DNA of 64,000 bases from an uncultured Candidatus Saccharibacteria bacterium (GCA_964531475.1 CAZHCS010000001.1:112739-176738), one strand, 5' to 3'; positions 13,780 to 52,058 are shown, counted from the stretch's first letter. Notes: generated by a model from the letters alone, not told the origin. Program-made: numbers and translations.

Positions 13780-14136
13780 TTATTTCAGTTTCTGTCTCAT
13801 TGAGTTTAACATTTTCATTACTTCTGCCAATAGCTTCTCTGCAATTGAAGTATCAATGTTTTTACCGAATGGAAGATTTCTCAGCAAAATTAGTTGAGTC
13901 TCTAGTTCTGCACTTGACCCGTAGGCTATTGTAATAAAATTACAAAAATCCTTTCTTGTCCCTCGTTTACTACCTTCAGCAATATTGGACGGAATTGAAA
14001 CTGCGCATCTGTTCATCTGGGAAGAGAGTCCGAATTTCTCTGATTGTGGTAGCTGAGACGTGATCTCGTATACCTTAATTGCCAACTCCATACTCTTCTG
14101 CCAAACGACCAGGTCTTTGTTGGAATCCAAGCCCAT
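13780..14136 (-). CDS. Four-helix-bundle protein (PF05635-like; rRNA-IVS protein / Avd-like family)
   Basis: ...VWQKSMELAIKVYEIT...NRCAVSIPSNIAEGSKRGTRKDFCNFITIAYGSSAELETQLILL..., the hallmark pattern of this family. Length 118 aa. Confidence 0.7.
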   Translation of the reverse strand: MGLDSNKDLVVWQKSMELAIKVYEITSQLPQSEKFGLSSQMNRCAVSIPSNIAEGSKRGTRKDFCNFITIAYGSSAELETQLILLRNLPFGKNIDTSIAEKLLAEVMKMLNSMRQKLK

Positions 14137-15260: not shown

Positions 15261-15285
15261 CTGGTCGAGGTCGGACCTCGACCAG
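15261..15285. repeat. REP palindrome, family 1 (inverted copy)
   Basis: CTGGTCGAGGTCgGACCTCGACCAG, a 25-bp palindrome 18 nt upstream of the RAYT start. Confidence 0.7.
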
Positions 15286-15302: not shown

Positions 15303-15920
15303 ATGACTCGAAAAGATTCCTTTACGACCGGTTATCATTATCACGTTTATAATCGTGGTGTCGATAAAAGAAACATTTTCAAAAGCAAATCTGATTATGC
15401 TCGATTTTTAGACATACTCGAGCGTTTCAATAGTTCCCTAGCTGCAAATAATACGTCACGTGATTCAGTTCGCAAGAGAAAAGAAGACCTATCGTTAGTC
15501 AAAATTCACGCACATTGCTTAATGCCGAATCATTACCATCTTATTTTGGAGCAGCTTGTAGACAATGGGATTTCAAAATTTCTTCAAAAAGTAATGACGG
15601 GCTATACGATGTATTTCAATTTGAAACACGAACGATCAGGCGTTTTATTCCAAGGCAAGACAAAATCAAAACTTATACTAGAGGACGACTATCTCCGTTG
15701 GCTTAAGCAGTACATTGCACTCAATCCACTCGATCTCCATACACCAAATTGGAAAGAAAATGGAATTCAAGATCATAAAAGTGCAATCAATTTTTTGAAA
15801 GATTACGCTTATAGAAGCGAATACGATTATAACGATTGCGACCTTAACGGCTTTATTAAAGAATTACAAGAAGACAACTGGTCGAGGTCCGACCTCGACC
15901 AGGTGCGCGTTGAGAAATAA
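15303..15920 (+). CDS. IS200-like Y1 transposase (REP-associated tyrosine transposase, RAYT-like)
   Basis: HUH motif CLMPNHYHLILE and the catalytic-Tyr helix KQYIALNPLDL. The 3' end of the ORF runs through a REP copy. Confidence 0.8.
   Translation: MTRKDSFTTGYHYHVYNRGVDKRNIFKSKSDYARFLDILERFNSSLAANNTSRDSVRKRKEDLSLVKIHAHCLMPNHYHLILEQLVDNGISKFLQKVMTGYTMYFNLKHERSGVLFQGKTKSKLILEDDYLRWLKQYIALNPLDLHTPNWKENGIQDHKSAINFLKDYAYRSEYDYNDCDLNGFIKELQEDNWSRSDLDQVRVEK
15878..15902. repeat. REP palindrome, family 1
   Basis: CTGGTCGAGGTCcGACCTCGACCAG inside the last codons of the RAYT gene (WSRSDLDQV). Confidence 0.7.
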
Positions 15921-15980
15921 ATTGGTGGAAAAGCAAAGCGCCCCGTCGAAACAGGGCGCCAAGATGCTATTAGCTCATGC

Positions 15981-16463
15981 CTACGGCAGGTAGTACTTGA
16001 GATCCGAGTACCCGCCATCACTATCAGGATTAGCTTCCCACCCGAAGTCTTTCACCAGATGGTCTCTGAGCAGCTGTGCCATGGCAGCAAGTGCCTTTTT
16101 CCATTCAGGGTATTTCGTTTCAGAGTCCCTGAAGTCCACATAGTGAACACCGTCGGTGATACCGAGGATGCAATGATAGCGCTCTCCCTCATTGGGATAC
16201 AGGTTGATTCTCAACCCGATCAGATCTACGTCTTTGTTAATATCGAAAACGTACCTGGTCAATATTGTCATTCCAGGATATTCGTCACTAAGTCTTGCCC
16301 CCTTGGCATTGTTTGAATGACCATCAAGATCAAGAATTGCCTCTGGGGGCAAGACCTCTAGCCTGACACCCTTGTTCTCTGAGTTATGAACGTCCCACCG
16401 CTGAAAAGCGTCTGCCAACTCCTCAACGAGAACTCGAGCGATCTTATACTGGAGCATGTCCAT
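15981..16463 (-). CDS. Hypothetical protein
   Basis: 160-aa ORF adjacent to the RAYT unit. No motif recognised. Confidence 0.45.
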   Translation of the reverse strand: MDMLQYKIARVLVEELADAFQRWDVHNSENKGVRLEVLPPEAILDLDGHSNNAKGARLSDEYPGMTILTRYVFDINKDVDLIGLRINLYPNEGERYHCILGITDGVHYVDFRDSETKYPEWKKALAAMAQLLRDHLVKDFGWEANPDSDGGYSDLKYYLP

Positions 16464-16537
16464 TTTGCAATTGTGTTGTGCCCTTTTCAGGAGCTGGTTT
16501 GTACTTTTTGTGTCGGTAATTTTATAGCATTTTATTA

Positions 16538-17962
16538 CTATTTTGTCAATATTTCCTGGAGTATCTTCAAGGCAAGCTGCGGATTGGCGCTTCCCTTAGA
16601 CTCACGCATAAACTGCCCGACGAGGAATTGGATGGATTTTTCGTTACCGGATTTGTAGTCTAGGGCGACTTTCGGATTGGCGACGATGATGGCTTCGGCG
16701 GTGGCCTTGAGTTTACCTTCGTCGAATTCTTGAATGAGGCCGTGCTCTTTGGCGAAAGTCTCTGGATCGATATCAGCTTTTACGATTTCCGCGATAAGGT
16801 CTTTGGCTCCACGAGAGCTTAGTTTATTGTCGCCGAGCATCTGCATGATTTTCGCAAAGCTTTCTGGTTTCGGGAATTTAAAATCTGCGCCAGCAATCTT
16901 TCGAAGACCATTTAAATCAGACAAAATATAGTTCACTGCTGGTCGAGGTCCGACCTCGACCAGGATTGCTTCGAGAAATTGGATTAATTCAAAATCTGAA
17001 ACGAGAATCTCAACATCCTCATCTTTAATGCCAAGCGCCTTCAGCCTCTCACGCTTCGCAGACGGAAGTTCTGGCAATTCCGCTCGCATCTTTTCAAGAT
17101 CAAACATCTCATGCAAGTACATCTTCGGAATATCTGGTTCCGGGAAGTAACGATAGTCGTGAGAATCTTCTTTCTTCCTTTGTGAAAATGTCGATTGTTT
17201 GTTTTCGTCCCATCCGCGCGTTTCTTGGATAATCTCGCTTCCCTTGCCAGCTTCAAGAAGCGCAATGTGGCGCTTGATCTCGTACTCGGCCGCTTTTTCG
17301 ACAGCTTTGAAAGAGTTTATGTTTTTGACTTCGACTTTTGTGCCAAATTTGTCCGTATCAGAAACAGACAAGTTCAGCTCTACACGCATTTCACCCTTTT
17401 CCATGTTCGCATCAGACACACCGAGGGTTCGGAGAAGTAATTGGAGTTCGCGTCCGAAGTCACCCGCTTCTTTGGCGCTATGAATTACTGGTTCGGTAAC
17501 GAGTTCCATGAGTGGCACACCAGCGCGATTGTAGTCGATGAGCGAAAAGCCCGCCCCGACCGAAGCGTCGGGGTCGCCATCCCTGTGTTTGTTGTTCGCG
17601 GTATCTTCTTCGAGATGCACGCGCGTTACAGCGACACCATTGAGTTTTCCACCAGAAACGATCGGATATTTGTATTGAGAAATTTGGTAGCCTTTCGGGA
17701 TATCCGGATAGAAATAGTTCTTGCGGTCAAATTCGGTGAAGTTCGCGATGTTGGCACCGAGCGCGAGGCCGACTTTGACCACGCTCTCGACGGCTTTCAT
17801 ATTCGGCACAGGCAAAGTTCCTGGATGCGCCATACATACGGGACAAACATTGACGTTTGGCTTTTCCTCGTCGGGATTATTCCGGCACGCGCAAAACATC
17901 TTGGTAGTTGTTTTCAACTCCGCGTGAATTTCTAACCCAATTGTGACTTTGTAATCTTTCAT
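16538..17962 (-). CDS. gatB: Asp-tRNA(Asn)/Glu-tRNA(Gln) amidotransferase subunit B
   Basis: MKDYKVTIGLEIHAEL... GatB N-terminus and a C-terminal GatB/YqeY domain. It contains an in-frame REP copy at 16939-16963. Confidence 0.9.
   Translation of the reverse strand: MKDYKVTIGLEIHAELKTTTKMFCACRNNPDEEKPNVNVCPVCMAHPGTLPVPNMKAVESVVKVGLALGANIANFTEFDRKNYFYPDIPKGYQISQYKYPIVSGGKLNGVAVTRVHLEEDTANNKHRDGDPDASVGAGFSLIDYNRAGVPLMELVTEPVIHSAKEAGDFGRELQLLLRTLGVSDANMEKGEMRVELNLSVSDTDKFGTKVEVKNINSFKAVEKAAEYEIKRHIALLEAGKGSEIIQETRGWDENKQSTFSQRKKEDSHDYRYFPEPDIPKMYLHEMFDLEKMRAELPELPSAKRERLKALGIKDEDVEILVSDFELIQFLEAILVEVGPRPAVNYILSDLNGLRKIAGADFKFPKPESFAKIMQMLGDNKLSSRGAKDLIAEIVKADIDPETFAKEHGLIQEFDEGKLKATAEAIIVANPKVALDYKSGNEKSIQFLVGQFMRESKGSANPQLALKILQEILTK
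16939..16963. repeat. REP palindrome, family 1, embedded in-frame in gatB
   Basis: An identical 25-mer encoding LVEVGPRPA within the GatB linker region. Confidence 0.7.
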
Positions 17963-18039
17963 AGGCGTGCTTGTCCGTCCGTAGCTTTAGCGAAGGAGGA
18001 AATCTCGAGGCCGATGGTAACCTTGTACTTCGGATTCAT
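17959..18039 (-). other. 26-codon fossil copy of the gatB 5' end (uORF overlapping the gatB start)
   Basis: ATG at 18039. It translates MNPKYKVTIGLEISSFAKATDGQARL, versus the GatB N-terminus MKDYKVTIGLEIHAELKTT. Its TGA overlaps the gatB ATG (ATGA). Differences are mostly synonymous with higher-GC codons. Confidence 0.4.
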
Positions 18040-18127
18040 AAAGGGCATTTTAGCAGAAATTTACATTTTTCTTAAGTGTTTGACAAACAACTTAGACTAA
18101 AGTATTTTTATCTACAAACAGGACGTC

Positions 18128-18319
18128 ATGAAAATCTTCCGATATCGCCCAGCTAACAATGAAGAACGGGAACAGCATTTCCGGTTCGCCATGATTTGCA
18201 TCTTTGCCGTGGTCGGCTTTCTCATGGCAATAGTATTGCTGTCCCCTAACACAAGTCCTTTCGAGAAATTCCGAAAACACAATGACAAAGAGTTAGTCCC
18301 GCAAACCCAGCGGGACTAA
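18128..18319 (+). CDS. Small hypothetical membrane protein (63 aa)
   Basis: AGGA lies 4 nt upstream of the ATG, and there is one hydrophobic segment. The ORF is convergent with obg and abuts it. Coding status is uncertain. Confidence 0.3.
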   Translation: MKIFRYRPANNEEREQHFRFAMICIFAVVGFLMAIVLLSPNTSPFEKFRKHNDKELVPQTQRD

Positions 18320-18320
18320 T

Positions 18321-19319
18321 TTATTGCCTCAAAATCTTCACTAACTCATCCCCCACTTTCTTCACCGACTCATCATCAAACGCCGACATCGTTAAAACTT
18401 CCTTACCGAGCTTTTCAAATTCCTTTTTCATTTTCTTGATCGTATCAGCATCCGCAACATCTGTTTTCGTGAGAATGATTATTTCTGGCTTGGCCGCGAG
18501 CTCTTCATCATAATTTTCCAGTTCCTGGCGAATATTTTTATACGTCTGCATCATGCCAGAGGTTCCGAGGTCGTCCGAGGAGCTGAGATTTTCAAAAGAC
18601 ACGAGATGCGCGATCATTTTGGTGCGCTTGATGTGCTTGAGGAACTTGAGACCGAGCCCCTTGCCTTCGGACGCGCCTTCGATGATGCCCGGGATGTCGG
18701 CAATGACGAATTCTTGGAGAACGCCCAAATGCGGATCAAGCGTCGTGAAGGCGTAGCTCCCGATTTTCGACTTGGAATTCGTGACGGCGTTGATGAGCGT
18801 ACTCTTGCCCGCATTCGGATAGCCGACGAGCCCGAGGTCGGCAAACAAGCGGAGTTCGATATGAAAATGCCCAGCCTCGCCCGGCTTGCCGGGAGTCGAC
18901 TCGTACGGAGTCGTGTTAGTCGACGATTTGAAATGTTCGTTCCCGAGACCGCCCTTGCCGCCCTTGAGCACAAGGATCTTCTGTCCGGCTTCAGTGAGCT
19001 CGTATTCTTTTCCTGTCTCGTTCTGGGTGACGACGGACCCAACCGGAAGCTTGATGAACAGGTCTTTGCCCTGCGCGCCGGCCATCTTTTTCTTGAAGCC
19101 CGCTTCGCCGTTCTCGGCCAAGAATTTCGTATCGTGGGTGTAGCTCGCGAGGAGTCCCGAATCTTTGACGCCTTCGATATAGACATCGCCGCCGTTCCCG
19201 CCATCGCCGCCGGCAGGCCCGCCGCGGTCTTCGAATTTGTCCTGGCGCCAGCGAACAACCCCGTCTCCGCCGGAGCCTGCACGCGCGTAGATTGTCAGTT
19301 CATCGATGAATGCCCTAAT
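18321..19319 (-). CDS. obg: GTPase Obg
   Basis: Obg-fold N-terminus (FIDELTIYARAGSGGDG..GGDGGNGG) plus a G-domain (GYPNAGKST, DIPG). The in-frame region upstream of the first ATG has no ATG/GTG/TTG. The start is proposed as ATT or ATA overlapping the upstream stop (TAATT). Confidence 0.75.
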   Translation of the reverse strand: MRAFIDELTIYARAGSGGDGVVRWRQDKFEDRGGPAGGDGGNGGDVYIEGVKDSGLLASYTHDTKFLAENGEAGFKKKMAGAQGKDLFIKLPVGSVVTQNETGKEYELTEAGQKILVLKGGKGGLGNEHFKSSTNTTPYESTPGKPGEAGHFHIELRLFADLGLVGYPNAGKSTLINAVTNSKSKIGSYAFTTLDPHLGVLQEFVIADIPGIIEGASEGKGLGLKFLKHIKRTKMIAHLVSFENLSSSDDLGTSGMMQTYKNIRQELENYDEELAAKPEIIILTKTDVADADTIKKMKKEFEKLGKEVLTMSAFDDESVKKVGDELVKILRQ

Positions 19320-20800: not shown

Positions 20801-21147
20801 TAGTCTTCTTTGTTCTTGCCGAACATGCTGCCGATCCAGTTGAACACCGACACAACAAGAGAGCCGAAAAGCGCCGCGGTGAATGTATCAACGTCCATAC
20901 CCGGCACGATTCCCGAGACGAACCAGAAGAAGAGCGCGTTCAAAACAACAAGGAAGATACCGAGAGTAATGATGGTAATAGGTAGTGTCAGGATGCGGAT
21001 GATTGGCTTGACGATGAACTGAACGACAGTGAGAAGCGCGCCGGCGATAACAATCGTTAACCAGCCATCAGTGTGGACACCGGCAACGAGATAATCGGCC
21101 AAGAAGACCGCGACCGAAAGTAATATGAGTCGTATGAGTAATTTCAT
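20800..21147 (-). CDS. DUF360/holin-4-like small membrane protein
   Basis: 115 aa with 3-4 TM segments. Its start codon lies directly against the inverted-repeat element at 21148. Confidence 0.55.
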   Translation of the reverse strand: MKLLIRLILLSVAVFLADYLVAGVHTDGWLTIVIAGALLTVVQFIVKPIIRILTLPITIITLGIFLVVLNALFFWFVSGIVPGMDVDTFTAALFGSLVVSVFNWIGSMFGKNKED

Positions 21148-21256
21148 CCCGTTAGAAGCAGGTCGCGGTCTTTCCGCTCCATGCTTGGTTATTATTTTTA
21201 ATCATAAACATAATTTTAGCATAGTTTAAAGATTCGTGACCGCGGCTTCTAACGGG
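21148..21256. repeat. CCCGTTAG-TIR palindromic element, copy 1
   Basis: Arms cccgttagaagcaggtcgcggtc / gaccgcggcttctaacggg with an AT-rich core. Flanks are TTCAT on the left and ATTCATG on the right. Confidence 0.65.
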
Positions 21257-21271
21257 ATTCATGTCAATAAT

Positions 21272-21727
21272 CTATGCGAATAATTGATCGACTGCGTTCT
21301 TGACGTCAGCGCCGTCAGCCTTGCCCTTCAAGTCTTTCATAAGCGCACCGACGAGCATTCCCTTTTTCGAAGCGTCGGTGATGCCAAGCTCGGCTTTCTT
21401 CGCTTCGGCGAGTTTCTGTACTTCTTCAAACGGCATCATTTCCGGCAAGAATTCCGTGAGAATGACGAGTTCTTTCTCTTCTGATTCTGCAAGCTCAGGC
21501 CGGCCGCCGTCGATGAACTGCTTGATCGATTCTTTGCGCTGCTTTGAAAGACGCGTGATGACTGCCAGCGCTTCCTCGTCAGTAAGCATATCCTGGGGCG
21601 TACGCTTCGTCGCGACGAGCTCGTTCGTGAACGCCGTCGAGATGCCGCGCATGACCAGAACCCGGCTTTCGTCCTTGGCTTTCATAGCCGCCATAATTCC
21701 CCCTTTGATTTGTTCGTGAAGTGTCAT
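21272..21727 (-). CDS. yqeY: GatB/YqeY-domain protein
   Basis: 151 aa with the typical YqeY pattern. Confidence 0.8.
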   Translation of the reverse strand: MTLHEQIKGGIMAAMKAKDESRVLVMRGISTAFTNELVATKRTPQDMLTDEEALAVITRLSKQRKESIKQFIDGGRPELAESEEKELVILTEFLPEMMPFEEVQKLAEAKKAELGITDASKKGMLVGALMKDLKGKADGADVKNAVDQLFA

Positions 21728-24629: not shown

Positions 24630-24745
24630 CCCGTTAGAGATGTTTCGGTTTAGTATTTAATGGGAATCATGATTTTTTATGGTCGTTAATCACTTAGAAA
24701 AAAATAGCCTAGGTACGCAAACCAAAGTTTGCTATCTCTAACGGG
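24630..24745. repeat. CCCGTTAG-TIR palindromic element, copy 2 (degenerate)
   Basis: 12-bp arms cccgttagagat / atctctaacggg. The right end abuts the rmuC ATG. Confidence 0.5.
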
Positions 24746-25774
24746 ATGAACGCAATCATCTACGGCATCATCGGTCTCGTTGTCGGACTTATTCTCGTCC
24801 GGCTTTTCCAGTCGCGTAAAAAGTCTGACGACGGCGCGCCGCTTTTCAAAATGCTTGCCGACGAGATGAAAGACCTGCGCCGCACAATGGACGAAAAACT
24901 CCACCAGTCCAACGAATCTATCCGCTACCAGTCGAGCGAATCACAGCGCCTCATCAAAGAGATCACGCGCGAAATAACCGAAGTCAAAGAGACGGGCCGA
25001 CAAGTCATGGGCTTCACCGACCAACTCCAGCAGCTTCAGAATATGCTAAAGAATCCAAAAAGCCGCGGCGTACTCGGCGAGTATTACCTCGAGACACTTT
25101 TAAAAAATACGCTACCGCCTGGCTCGTACCAGATGCAGTATCCTTTTCAAAATGGCGAGATCGTCGACGCGGCAGTCTTTGTCAAAGACAAAATTATTCC
25201 CGTTGATTCAAAATTCTCTCTCGAAAATTATAATCGTATTACCGATGCTGCTGATCCGTCGGAGCGCGATCGCTTGGAAAAACTATTCTTGAACGATTTG
25301 AAAAATCGCATAGTCGAAACAGCCAAATACATCCGTCCGGAACTAAATACGATGGATTTCGCGTTCATGTTCATTCCCCACGAAGCGATTTATTATGATT
25401 TGCTCGTAAACAAGATCGGCGCGATCGGCGAAGATACTGAAAACCTCATCCAACGCGCAGCATCCAAGTACCGAGTCATCATCGTCTCACCGACCAGCTT
25501 CCTCGCGTACCTGCAGACTGTGCTCCAGGGACTCAAAGCTTTGCAGATCGAAGAATCCGCCAAAGAAATCCAGAAGCGTGTCGGCGAGCTAGGCAAGCAT
25601 TTGAAGTCTTACGAGGACTACCACAACAAACTCGGTCGCAATCTTTCGACAGTCGTGAACCAGTACGAACTTTCTGGCAAAGAACTCAAGAAGATCGACA
25701 AAGACGTCTATCGCATCTCTGGCGAAACTGTCGGCTTGGAGCCGCTCGAAATCGAAAAGCCTCGCGAAGACTAG
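24746..25774 (+). CDS. rmuC: DNA recombination protein RmuC
   Basis: N-terminal TM segment and coiled coil, plus the RmuC core (...DFAFMFIPHEAIY...). Confidence 0.8.
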   Translation: MNAIIYGIIGLVVGLILVRLFQSRKKSDDGAPLFKMLADEMKDLRRTMDEKLHQSNESIRYQSSESQRLIKEITREITEVKETGRQVMGFTDQLQQLQNMLKNPKSRGVLGEYYLETLLKNTLPPGSYQMQYPFQNGEIVDAAVFVKDKIIPVDSKFSLENYNRITDAADPSERDRLEKLFLNDLKNRIVETAKYIRPELNTMDFAFMFIPHEAIYYDLLVNKIGAIGEDTENLIQRAASKYRVIIVSPTSFLAYLQTVLQGLKALQIEESAKEIQKRVGELGKHLKSYEDYHNKLGRNLSTVVNQYELSGKELKKIDKDVYRISGETVGLEPLEIEKPRED

Positions 25775-25799
25775 CTGGTCGAGGTCCGACCTCGACCAG
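25775..25799. repeat. REP palindrome, family 1
   Basis: An identical 25-mer starting directly after the rmuC stop codon. Confidence 0.7.
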
Positions 25800-49411: not shown

Positions 49412-49491
49412 CCCGTTAGTGACAGGTCGCGCTCTCACGTGCCTGATAATTTAGATTTGTAATATCCCGAGCGACCACGGTCACTAACGGG
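49412..49491. repeat. CCCGTTAG-TIR palindromic element, copy 3
   Basis: Arms cccgttagtgacaggtcgcgc / gcgaccacggtcactaacggg. The left end abuts the HlyD-like gene ATG. Confidence 0.65.
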
Positions 49492-49557
49492 ATTCATGGC
49501 AACATAATAACATGAAAACGTCCGATTTAGAAGACTGTTTTTTCAATTAAAACAAGA

Positions 49558-51194: not shown

Positions 51195-51308
51195 CCCGTT
51201 AGAGACAGGTCGCGGTGATCCCGCGATATGCCTTGATAATGTTTATAATTTTTATATTATTAATCATTGCAGATTTTCCAGAATTTAGCGACCGCGGTCT
51301 CTAACGGG
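51195..51308. repeat. CCCGTTAG-TIR palindromic element, copy 4
   Basis: Arms cccgttagagacaggtcgcggtg / agcgaccgcggtctctaacggg with an AT-rich core. Flanks are TGCAT on the left and ATGCAT on the right. Confidence 0.65.
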
Positions 51309-51317
51309 ATGCATAGA

Positions 51318-52058
51318 TTAGCGAATAACGAACGTCGCGCGGACAGTGACTGATACTTCTTTGTCGACAGTCGATGTGTCATAGCTGCCGTAATCAGAAA
51401 CATCTATAGAATTCGGAGGCAAAACCTGGACGACACCAGACGTTGCGGTCTTTAGTTTACCGACACGTCCGCCTGATGCATTGGCTATCTCTTTAGCGCG
51501 AGCTTTGGCATCTTTGACTGCATCACCCAAAAGCGCCACGCGCGCTTCGGCAAGTCCCGAATAGAAGTACTGCGCGCCGTAAGTCTGAAAGAGAACACCC
51601 GACGCTGCCAGCCCGTCAATGTCGTTCCCTATCTTTGTCACCTTTGCAACATCTTTAGAGTCGATGCTAACTGTCGCGCGGAGCTCATAACGCTTTGGAG
51701 CCGATTCGTTATTGTTGTAGTTGTATTGCTCGTTAAGAATGACTGGAGAAATGGTTATTTCTTCTTCGGCAACACCTGCTTTTACAAGGAATTCTTTGAC
51801 ACGTGCCGTGTCGCGATCGATCTTCGCGTAGCCGCTCGCCAGATCAAATTCGCTCGCATATGCAAGCACTGAACCGGAGAGTTTGGCCGAGTCCGAGACG
51901 ACGCTCATTTTGGCCGAGCCAGTAGAGGTGAGAGTGTTTCCCGCACCGCGAACACTTCCGACGATAATACCTCCTATTACGGCGACAACAATAAGTGCTG
52001 CACCGAGCACGGCCGCCGCTGTCGCATTTTGCTTTTCGAAAATTTGTTTGATTTGCAT
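51318..52058 (-). CDS. SIMPL-domain (DUF541) periplasmic protein
   Basis: Signal/TM segment followed by the SIMPL-like pattern. Confidence 0.65.
   Translation of the reverse strand: MQIKQIFEKQNATAAAVLGAALIVVAVIGGIIVGSVRGAGNTLTSTGSAKMSVVSDSAKLSGSVLAYASEFDLASGYAKIDRDTARVKEFLVKAGVAEEEITISPVILNEQYNYNNNESAPKRYELRATVSIDSKDVAKVTKIGNDIDGLAASGVLFQTYGAQYFYSGLAEARVALLGDAVKDAKARAKEIANASGGRVGKLKTATSGVVQVLPPNSIDVSDYGSYDTSTVDKEVSVTVRATFVIR

Follow-up and report, generated by a model that had tools for sequence, protein, structure and literature searches.

The window analyzed here, a 64,000-nt stretch of DNA (CAZHCS010000001.1:112739-176738), carries on its minus strand a complete gatB gene, identified by its catalytic GatB_N domain and its C-terminal GatB/YqeY domain. 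Directly ahead of gatB lies a 26-codon upstream open reading frame (uORF) that opens with a divergent second copy of the gatB 5' end, here termed the fossil, and fossil and gatB are separated by a 38-nt spacer. The fossil is best read as the displaced former first 13 codons of gatB, i.e., as a recombination scar. The window was assigned to Patescibacteria/Paceibacterota via its GatB homologues, of which thousands were found, and was compared with 171 related Paceibacteria (Patescibacteria) loci, designated by L-numbers (P-numbers denote database proteins). Among the matches listed, the relatives from a scan of genome contigs reached at most 73% identity and those from a scan of metagenome contigs at most 65%, which gave the comparison breadth rather than a donor. 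In nine relatives with fetched contigs the gene order YqeY, holin-like gene, MYG1, obg, small divergent membrane open reading frame (ORF), gatB, GAPDH, RpiB and aldolase is conserved. The DNA of the window is ~88-95% identical to L001 and L004 across ~13 kb, except from 18320 to ~17600, i.e., from the end of obg through the first ~350 nt of gatB.

The uORF (MNPKYKVTIGLEISSFAKATDGQARL) is composed of the fossil (MNPKYKVTIGLEI) and 13 unrelated residues that arise from reading through a repeat in the spacer. Residues 4-13 of this mini-ORF agree with GatB residues 3-12 at nine of ten positions (KYKVTIGLEI vs. DYKVTIGLEI). When the 120 nt ahead of gatB were shuffled 20,000 times, no 10-residue match better than 6/10 arose; the match between fossil and GatB is far beyond chance. 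Similarity to gatB ends after GAGATT (18001), past codon 13, and the rest of the gene is absent, which marks the fossil as a pseudogene fragment of a gatB 5' end. At the DNA level it is only 67-70% identical to the window's own gene copy: ten differences were counted in 30 nt, eight of them within nine codons for identical residues, where all eight are synonymous, and third positions are G or C in 8/10 codons of the fragment as compared to 3/10 of gatB. With the intact gatB 5' end of L089 the fossil shares 32 of 39 nt, and L089 continues beyond the end of the fossil as GAGATT|CACGCT. The earlier note had described a minus-strand mini-ORF resembling the GatB N-terminus, with mostly synonymous differences, GC-richer codons and a TGA overlapping the gatB ATG; these comparisons bear out that description, including the overlap (ATGA at 17962-17959).

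The promoter-like site at this locus points to the fossil and not to gatB, as its extended -10 box ends 7 nt ahead of the fossil ATG (18039). Leaderless mRNAs have a -10 box about 6-8 nt ahead of the start codon and neither a 5' untranslated region nor a Shine-Dalgarno site; with its 7 nt the fossil has this sequence layout, which implies that a transcript beginning there would be leaderless or near-leaderless. A second in-frame ATG at 18048 (MPFM...) falls within the -10 box and is probably not transcribed. The promoter and start of the fossil (TTCTGCTAAAATGCCCTTTATG) are those of L006 at 22/22 nt; L089 has the same promoter type, and it is intact genes of this type that the fossil resembles most. 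Moreover, the layout TGnTAnAnT, ~7 nt and start codon is found before gatB itself in most relatives, for example in L001 and L004 (both with a GTG start), L087-L090 and L005-L008, and a -10-like hexamer lies 4-10 nt ahead of the gatB start in 105 of 165 loci. Given this promoter context and the identities with L006 and L089, the fossil can be regarded as a start of gatB that still stands behind its native promoter. The proposal of the earlier note that a recombined or foreign gatB fragment is present here thus holds insofar as the fossil is a gatB remnant at a recombined locus, but the fragment itself is more likely the resident piece, and the newcomer has to be sought elsewhere.

Table 1. Features at and around the gatB start, in coordinates of the window.
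Feature	Position	Strand	Remarks
Promoter-like site	18047..18075	-	-35-like TTAAGA (18075-18070), 17-nt spacer, extended -10 TGCTAAAAT (18055-18047); from promoter scan
uORF, 26 codons	17959..18039	-	ATG 18039..18037, TGA 17961..17959
Fossil gatB 5' end, ATG + 12 codons	18001..18039	-	Homologous to gatB starts
38-nt spacer	17963..18000	-	~33-nt GC-rich palindromic repeat copy ('PAL': TCCTCCTTCGCTAAAGCTACGGACGGACAAGCAC) and tail GCCT
gatB, 474 aa	16538..17962	-	Pfam GatB_N PF02934 1.8e-104; GatB_Yqey PF02637 1.1e-29
25-nt palindrome in frame in gatB (CTGGTCGAGGTCCGACCTCGACCAG)	16939..16963		Different family from the spacer repeat; encodes LVEVGPRPA; shared with L001 only

The spacer proved to be a copy of a dispersed palindromic repeat, a point that the earlier note, largely right in its interpretation apart from which piece is the newcomer, had missed. 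Alignment of eight repeat sequences (window, L002, L086, L099, L133, L065, L071 and L172) yielded the consensus CCCC(G)nAGnAAAGCAAGCTnnCTACGGGGCAAGCA, an imperfect palindrome, and R1, a covariance model built from these eight, matched the window at 17967-18001 with 28.5 bits (E 7e-4), the window copy being itself part of the training set. Searching with R1 detected 15 copies in 0.99 Mb at four kinds of site: in gatB leaders (window, L002, L086, L099, L133 and L065), in frame within obg (L071 2661-2700, L046 2459-2498 and L129 1177-1216, read as ..SFD[PEGKQASYGAG]NLS...), in frame within gatB at about codon 28 (L172 3086-3125, read as CVN[PAGKHASDGAS]NPDEE, with no target duplication and also visible in proteins P0053-P0057), and inverted directly 3' of the gatB stop (L153, L090, L097 and L124). 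The copy of L153, which lies outside the model set, is identical to the window copy at 31/33 nt, with a GatB only ~59% identical, and the 15-nt core TTCGCTAAAGCTACG is the same in the window and in the L086 leader. The L002 leader is recognizably related to the window spacer as well; in L002 and L086 the same promoter and ATG are followed by the spacer with only 1-2 fossil codons kept, and their gatB begins M-K/N-D-Y-K-V, as does that of the window.

With its length in the range of 20-40 nt and its many copies at unrelated sites, the repeat qualifies as a REP-like dispersed palindrome, present as a single copy in the 64-kb window. REP/BIME repeats go with RAYT transposases, and the palindromic elements of Rickettsia, 100-150 nt long, occur in frame in coding regions. 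Like the former, the spacer repeat is a short GC-rich imperfect palindrome dispersed at gene boundaries and more conserved than its host genes, and like the latter it is also found in frame in coding regions (obg of L071, L046 and L129; gatB of L172); unlike both, it forms a different family in Patescibacteria, of ~33 nt and with one copy seen in the 64-kb window. Literature searches for a palindromic repeat family in Patescibacteria found no description. No significant similarity was detected between the spacer and gatB codons 14 onward (local alignments, shuffle P 0.5-0.96), so an origin of the spacer as decayed gatB sequence was rejected, its alignments being no better than those of shuffles. 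An Rfam scan of the leader (17700-18400) returned nothing credible even at E<=10, and over the whole window only two tRNAs passed the gathering threshold; no known RNA family thus matches the leader. A scan of metagenomes for a spacer joined to an MKDY start (GCTAYG N10-38 ATGAAV...) gave 0 matches, and a protein search with the first 120 residues of the window GatB returned partial proteins only, none with an MKDY start or a fossil.

A palindrome of another family is also present in the window: a 25-nt (near-)perfect palindrome, CTGGTCGAGGTC(C/G)GACCTCGACCAG, occurs in four copies (15261-15285, 15878-15902, 25775-25799 and the copy within gatB listed in Table 1), two of which flank an ORF of 205 aa (15303-15920, plus strand) resembling an IS200-like Y1 transposase.

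The annotation of gatB starts in related loci is affected by the sequence ahead of the gene. Spurious extensions precede the N-termini of database proteins P0002, P0003 and P0007, for which gene callers began upstream, in the promoter or in the palindrome leader (L001/L004 4001-4045; L002 4001-4081); the true starts are likely the GTG in L001/L004 and the MKDY ATG in L002. In L011, L012 and L021 a tRNA gene ends 4-10 nt ahead of the gatB ATG, and 3' processing of this tRNA would give a nearly leaderless gatB mRNA; P0073 is an annotation reading through a tRNA upstream of gatB.

The body of gatB is a recombination mosaic, as read from sliding-window identities and longest identical runs, which substantiates the view of the earlier note that this locus is a recombination hotspot: runs 100% identical to three different assemblies follow one another. 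The first 15 nt, with the MKDY-type start (17962-17948), are L002-like; 17947-17823, a run of 125 nt, matches L088, a locus with a normal start, at 100%; a 100% match to L004, with an identical run of 266 nt, covers ~17600-17232; and ~17000-16800 is ~100% identical to L001, with a run of 108 nt. The window GatB shares 96% identity with the protein of L001, a locus where both the spacer palindrome and the MKDY start are missing. The in-frame 25-nt palindrome in gatB provides context for a locus prone to palindrome insertion. Additionally, an in-frame 24-nt insertion at 17549-17572, 100% identical in L004 and absent from L001 and other relatives, is read from these alignments as further allelic mosaicism.

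Since the window stems from a metagenome-assembled genome, switching between co-occurring strains in a chimeric contig could partly explain the gatB mosaic, and the exact GatB protein of the window is not on record in other assemblies. However, the junction of fossil and spacer shares only ~4 nt with either parental type, which a k-mer graph could not bridge in the absence of real reads, and other samples, assembled independently, contain this arrangement too (L099, L133 and L168, with fossil-less forms in L002/L003 and L086). An assembly artefact is thus considered extremely unlikely.

The mosaic likewise bears on the possibility that the gatB 5' end was duplicated locally in tandem, diverged, later received a palindrome at the joint as the only non-essential spot and had one copy replaced by allelic recombination. 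In its favor, tandem duplications occur commonly, an insertion at the joint would be tolerated, allelic recombination has demonstrably overwritten gatB, and in L133 the tail is weakly similar to the sequence upstream of its fossil (P=0.04). On the other hand, the two copies in the window differ at 10/30 nt, with only synonymous changes in matching codons, the window tail is unlike the stretch that precedes the fossil (P=0.85), the promoter type of the fossil differs from that of the nearest relatives, and several extra events are required. We regard this scenario as very unlikely. A recent tandem duplication, against which the earlier note had already argued, is contradicted by the saturated synonymous sites between copies of 67% DNA identity and by a spacer and tail that are unrelated to gatB and not copied from neighboring sequence. 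The idea that the tail was copied from upstream of the fossil was rejected as well, being marginal in L133 alone.

How gatB is translated behind this leader has to be considered against the background of the genome. In the whole window, a Shine-Dalgarno-like motif was found in only 1/64 crude gene calls, while a -10-like hexamer lies ~6 nt ahead of the ATG in 22/64; in 15 of 47 same-strand gene pairs the downstream start lies -8 to +12 nt from the upstream stop. The genome thus appears to rely on leaderless initiation and coupling. Before gatB no Shine-Dalgarno site is present, and its AUG would lie 78 nt from the transcript 5' end, provided that the promoter is used as in the relatives. Termination-reinitiation needs overlaps or very short distances (PMC6728339, PMC10666635), and the stop of the uORF and the start of gatB overlap by 4 nt, the commonest geometry for coupling. 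As in organisms rich in leaderless mRNAs, gatB has no Shine-Dalgarno site; unlike in the usual ATGA coupling, its upstream ORF is a 26-codon relic and not a gene. Weak comparative support comes from seven related leaders, in six of which the uORF stops -4 to +14 nt from the gatB ATG (positions in the related loci: +8, -4, +14, +14, -3 and, in L086, +92). With almost no Shine-Dalgarno sites in the genome, ribosomes probably reach gatB by termination-reinitiation once they have read the fossil uORF, and the role of translational coupler that the earlier note had suggested for the uORF is plausible in such a genome. Instead of coupling, the transcript might be processed at the hairpin, or ribosomes might initiate directly in the unstructured tail. 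Translational bypassing, with ribosomes hopping from fossil to working copy, was rejected, because L168 has different take-off and landing codons and such a bypass would have no need of another ATG copy.

Regarding the origin of this arrangement, it is moderately probable that recombination brought in a gatB 5' allele bearing the repeat and displaced the resident start. Fossil and import can be assigned with more likelihood in this direction than in the reverse: the fossil would be the resident piece, whereas spacer and MKDY-type start are common to other lineages and so constitute the candidate import. We propose that the fragment was the original promoter-proximal start of the resident gatB, placed 6-7 nt past the -10 box on a leaderless mRNA, and that the incoming 5' allele carried the ~33-nt palindromic repeat and a short tail before its own ATG, with a start of the M-K/N-D-Y type (as in L002 and L086). 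The two would have been joined homologously inside gatB and illegitimately upstream, at the left foot of the palindrome, possibly via a microhomology, GATT(C), that gatB codons 12-14 (GAG ATT Cac) share with the left end of the repeat; because this upstream join was illegitimate, the first 13 codons of the resident would have been kept rather than replaced. GATT is shared by the end of the fossil (GAGATT) and the start of the L086-type leader (ATGGATTCTCC), and GATT(C) is also found at gatB codons 2-3 (ATG GAT TCn) in relatives. It could explain why junctions of the repeat subfamily fall after codon 1-2 (L086 and L009) or at the equivalent of window codon 13 (window and L168). Transcription would still begin at the fossil AUG, where ribosomes would load and translate 26 codons through the repeat before terminating at the UGA, which shares bases with the AUG of gatB, and reinitiating on gatB. 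The scar is thus best read as the product of two known ingredients, illegitimate/allelic recombination and a REP-like palindromic repeat, and its setting, a leaderless gene in a genome that lacks Shine-Dalgarno sites, gives it a likely role as a coupling uORF.

Such a course of events resembles homology-facilitated illegitimate recombination, which was reportedly described by de Vries and Wackernagel in 2002 and by Prudhomme and coworkers in 2002. In that process, 3-10 bp of microhomology are typically present at the illegitimate junction (PMC3240628). As proposed here, the gatB locus would be alike in that one end would be anchored by homology, on the mosaic side within gatB, and the other would be joined at a microhomology, leaving a scar in a syntenic locus. 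It is unlike it in that a short duplication of the start is seen instead of an insertion with deletion, that the microhomology is ~4 nt (the GATT shared with a leader of the L086 type, a relative and not the real donor) and that the position of the junction recurs in other lineages. A further parallel is offered by displaced gene ends, which persist after modules are replaced or after integrative elements bring in a substitute end. Integrative islands that target tRNA or tmRNA genes carry a substitute gene end. Orphan remnants are known from Vibrio cholerae type VI secretion system arrays (PMC5361080). In these cases, as proposed for gatB, incoming DNA brings a working gene end and the resident copy persists alongside as a divergent fragment; unlike there, the gap between fossil and gatB is only 38 nt, with no element body and no integrase, and it is the 5' end that is affected, so that the fragment keeps promoter and start codon.

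The comparison with related genomes for which the earlier note had called not only identified the parts of the locus but also revealed that the layout of fossil, repeat and gatB recurs. A scan of the 171 loci for a second TIGLE motif upstream of gatB detected three further fossils, in L099 (MQKKYYPTIGLEIH), L133 (MQNKYYPTIGLEIH) and L168 (MKYTPTIGLEI), each followed by a GC-rich hairpin and a complete gatB. The GatB proteins of these loci are 58-65% identical to that of the window (L099 vs. L133, 75%), and their nearest GatB relatives are without the fossil structure. R1 finds no match to the repeat family in the hairpins of L168 and L009 even with filters off, and these were assigned by position and shape.

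Several observations weigh against an illegitimate join of an incoming allele followed by coupling. The fossils of L099, L133 and L168 end within 3 nt of the end position of the window fossil, after GLEI or GLEIH, and a one-off illegitimate junction would not predict a shared end point. The fossils of L099 and L133 differ by seven synonymous and one non-synonymous change and their palindromes are nearly identical, a pattern that points to one of three situations: events that hit a preferred site independently, a uORF under selection, or overwriting, more than once, by functional alleles. The GATT microhomology amounts to only 4 nt and is taken from a 79%-identical relative rather than from the true donor. 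Moreover, the 125-nt run identical to L088 begins at codon 6, so that the import may span as little as ~55 nt, a small length for a homologous anchor. With respect to coupling, the uORF of L086 runs 92 nt into gatB, so coupling is not universal, and the positions of the uORF stops gave only P ~0.07 in the test against random frames.

One reading of this recurrence, unlikely but deserving attention, is that the layout of fossil, palindrome and gatB reflects a recurrent, mechanistically specific event in Paceibacteria, either a palindrome-linked cassette that inserts at about codon 13/14 with a replacement start or a selected leaderless leader of uORF and hairpin. In the cassette variant, which taken by itself is a little less likely still, the palindrome would insert at about codon 13/14 with a site preference, together with its tail and a substitute gatB start that reaches from the ATG to about codon 13, rebuilding the gene and displacing the old start as do integrative elements that carry the end of their target gene, and a Y1/HUH enzyme acting on the hairpin could do so. 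The proximity of the fossil ends in four well-separated lineages, the dispersal of the repeat and the far better conservation of palindrome copies than of their hosts (as for L153) agree with this, as does the borderline IS200-like Y1 ORF 2 kb away (Pfam 22.9 bits, cut-off 23). Yet that ORF is flanked by a palindrome unlike that of the spacer, the hairpin of L168 is not recognized by R1 as the same family, the palindrome insertions in L172 and L071 lack flanking duplications, and the identity run of window and L088 spans codon 13/14 unbroken. Furthermore, that the working 5' end travels with the palindrome was rejected, since the working 5' ends of palindrome-bearing loci are no closer to each other than to those of palindrome-less loci.

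In the other variant, uORF and hairpin would form a selected regulatory leader in which the GatB-like peptide or the hairpin acts by attenuation, RNA processing or start-site presentation, with the fossil under purifying selection. All four fossils are intact with TIGLEI invariant, and the synonymous excess between L099 and L133 and the position of uORF stops beside the gatB ATG are in line with selection. Pairing in the hairpin is kept despite changes in both arms (CCTGC/GCAGG in L086 vs. CCTCC/GGACGG in the window; GTAGC/GCTAC in L133 vs. GTAGT/ACTAC in L065), and in L009 a strong hairpin is followed by a T-run (z -2.7). However, palindromic repeats keep their pairing merely by being palindromic, and the folding of the window leader is no better than that of shuffles (z +1.27). 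Most relatives have no such leader, not even L001, the closest at 96% identity; L002, L086 and L009 retain just 1-2 fossil codons, and the frame through the palindrome varies among loci, so the uORF tail is not conserved. The fossil residues track the local clade (KYKV vs. KYYP), as recent derivation predicts, and no Rfam family corresponds to the leader. A regulatory leader is therefore judged distinctly unlikely. Leader peptides and uORFs such as trpL and ermCL act as attenuators, and gatB is similarly preceded by a short ORF with a hairpin between; unlike trpL and ermCL, the window leader has no runs of regulatory codons and no terminator (a T-run occurs in L009 only), the peptide tail is not conserved and the leader is absent from most relatives. 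Two specific forms of regulation were rejected: sensing of Asn/Gln codons by a leader peptide, since these codons are as frequent as chance predicts and their position would oppose homeostasis, and mimicry of a glutamine riboswitch or tRNA minihelix, since no model matched and C:G forms the first base pair.

Further observations concern the surroundings of the locus. The motif GACCnCG..CTAACGGGAT occurs as inverted pairs in four intergenic regions of the window (21147-21275, 24630-24760, 49412-49505 and 51195-51320), which fold as ~110-nt hairpins (21140-21280: -44.8 kcal/mol, z -6.6) whose 3' foot adjoins the ATG of the downstream gene (...CTAACGGGATG). An element of this kind is also found ahead of gatB in L172 (2880-3002). 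No Rfam family was found for these hairpins, which might serve to process transcripts or to present start codons where Shine-Dalgarno sites are lacking. Between obg and the convergent small membrane ORF (18128-18319, plus strand), a 10-bp hairpin at 18293-18319 (TTAGTCCCGC...GCGGGACTAA) is likely a bidirectional terminator. At the start of obg (19325-19310, minus strand; Pfam GTP1_OBG 7.6e-47), AGG is found in place of the ATG of relatives (IIRAFIDEL vs. MAFIDEL), the first canonical in-frame start lies ~68 codons further downstream, and the TAA of the gene upstream overlaps in-frame ATA/ATT codons; either a near-cognate start used via reinitiation or a sequencing error would account for this. 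Two segments are without counterpart in the closest relatives L001/L004: 13742-14180, which encodes a 23S rRNA intervening-sequence protein (13780-14136, Pfam 7.6e-38), and 15957-16520, with an ORF of 160 aa between gatB and the Y1 ORF that has no Pfam match.

The locus indicates that an essential gene can survive remodeling of its 5' end in bacteria with leaderless mRNAs and without Shine-Dalgarno sites. If coupling operates, the old start codon would serve as ribosome entry and gatB would be reached by the overlap of stop and start, which makes the locus a concrete test case for leaderless initiation and reinitiation in uncultured candidate phyla radiation (CPR) bacteria. The repeat family, moreover, inserts both at gene boundaries and in frame within essential genes, and the leaders ahead of gatB are flagged here as a cause of N-terminal extensions annotated in error. 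The recurrence among lineages deserves to be followed: if its selected-leader form were true, it would constitute a way in which an organism without Shine-Dalgarno sites expresses a gene whose start was pushed away from the mRNA 5' end.

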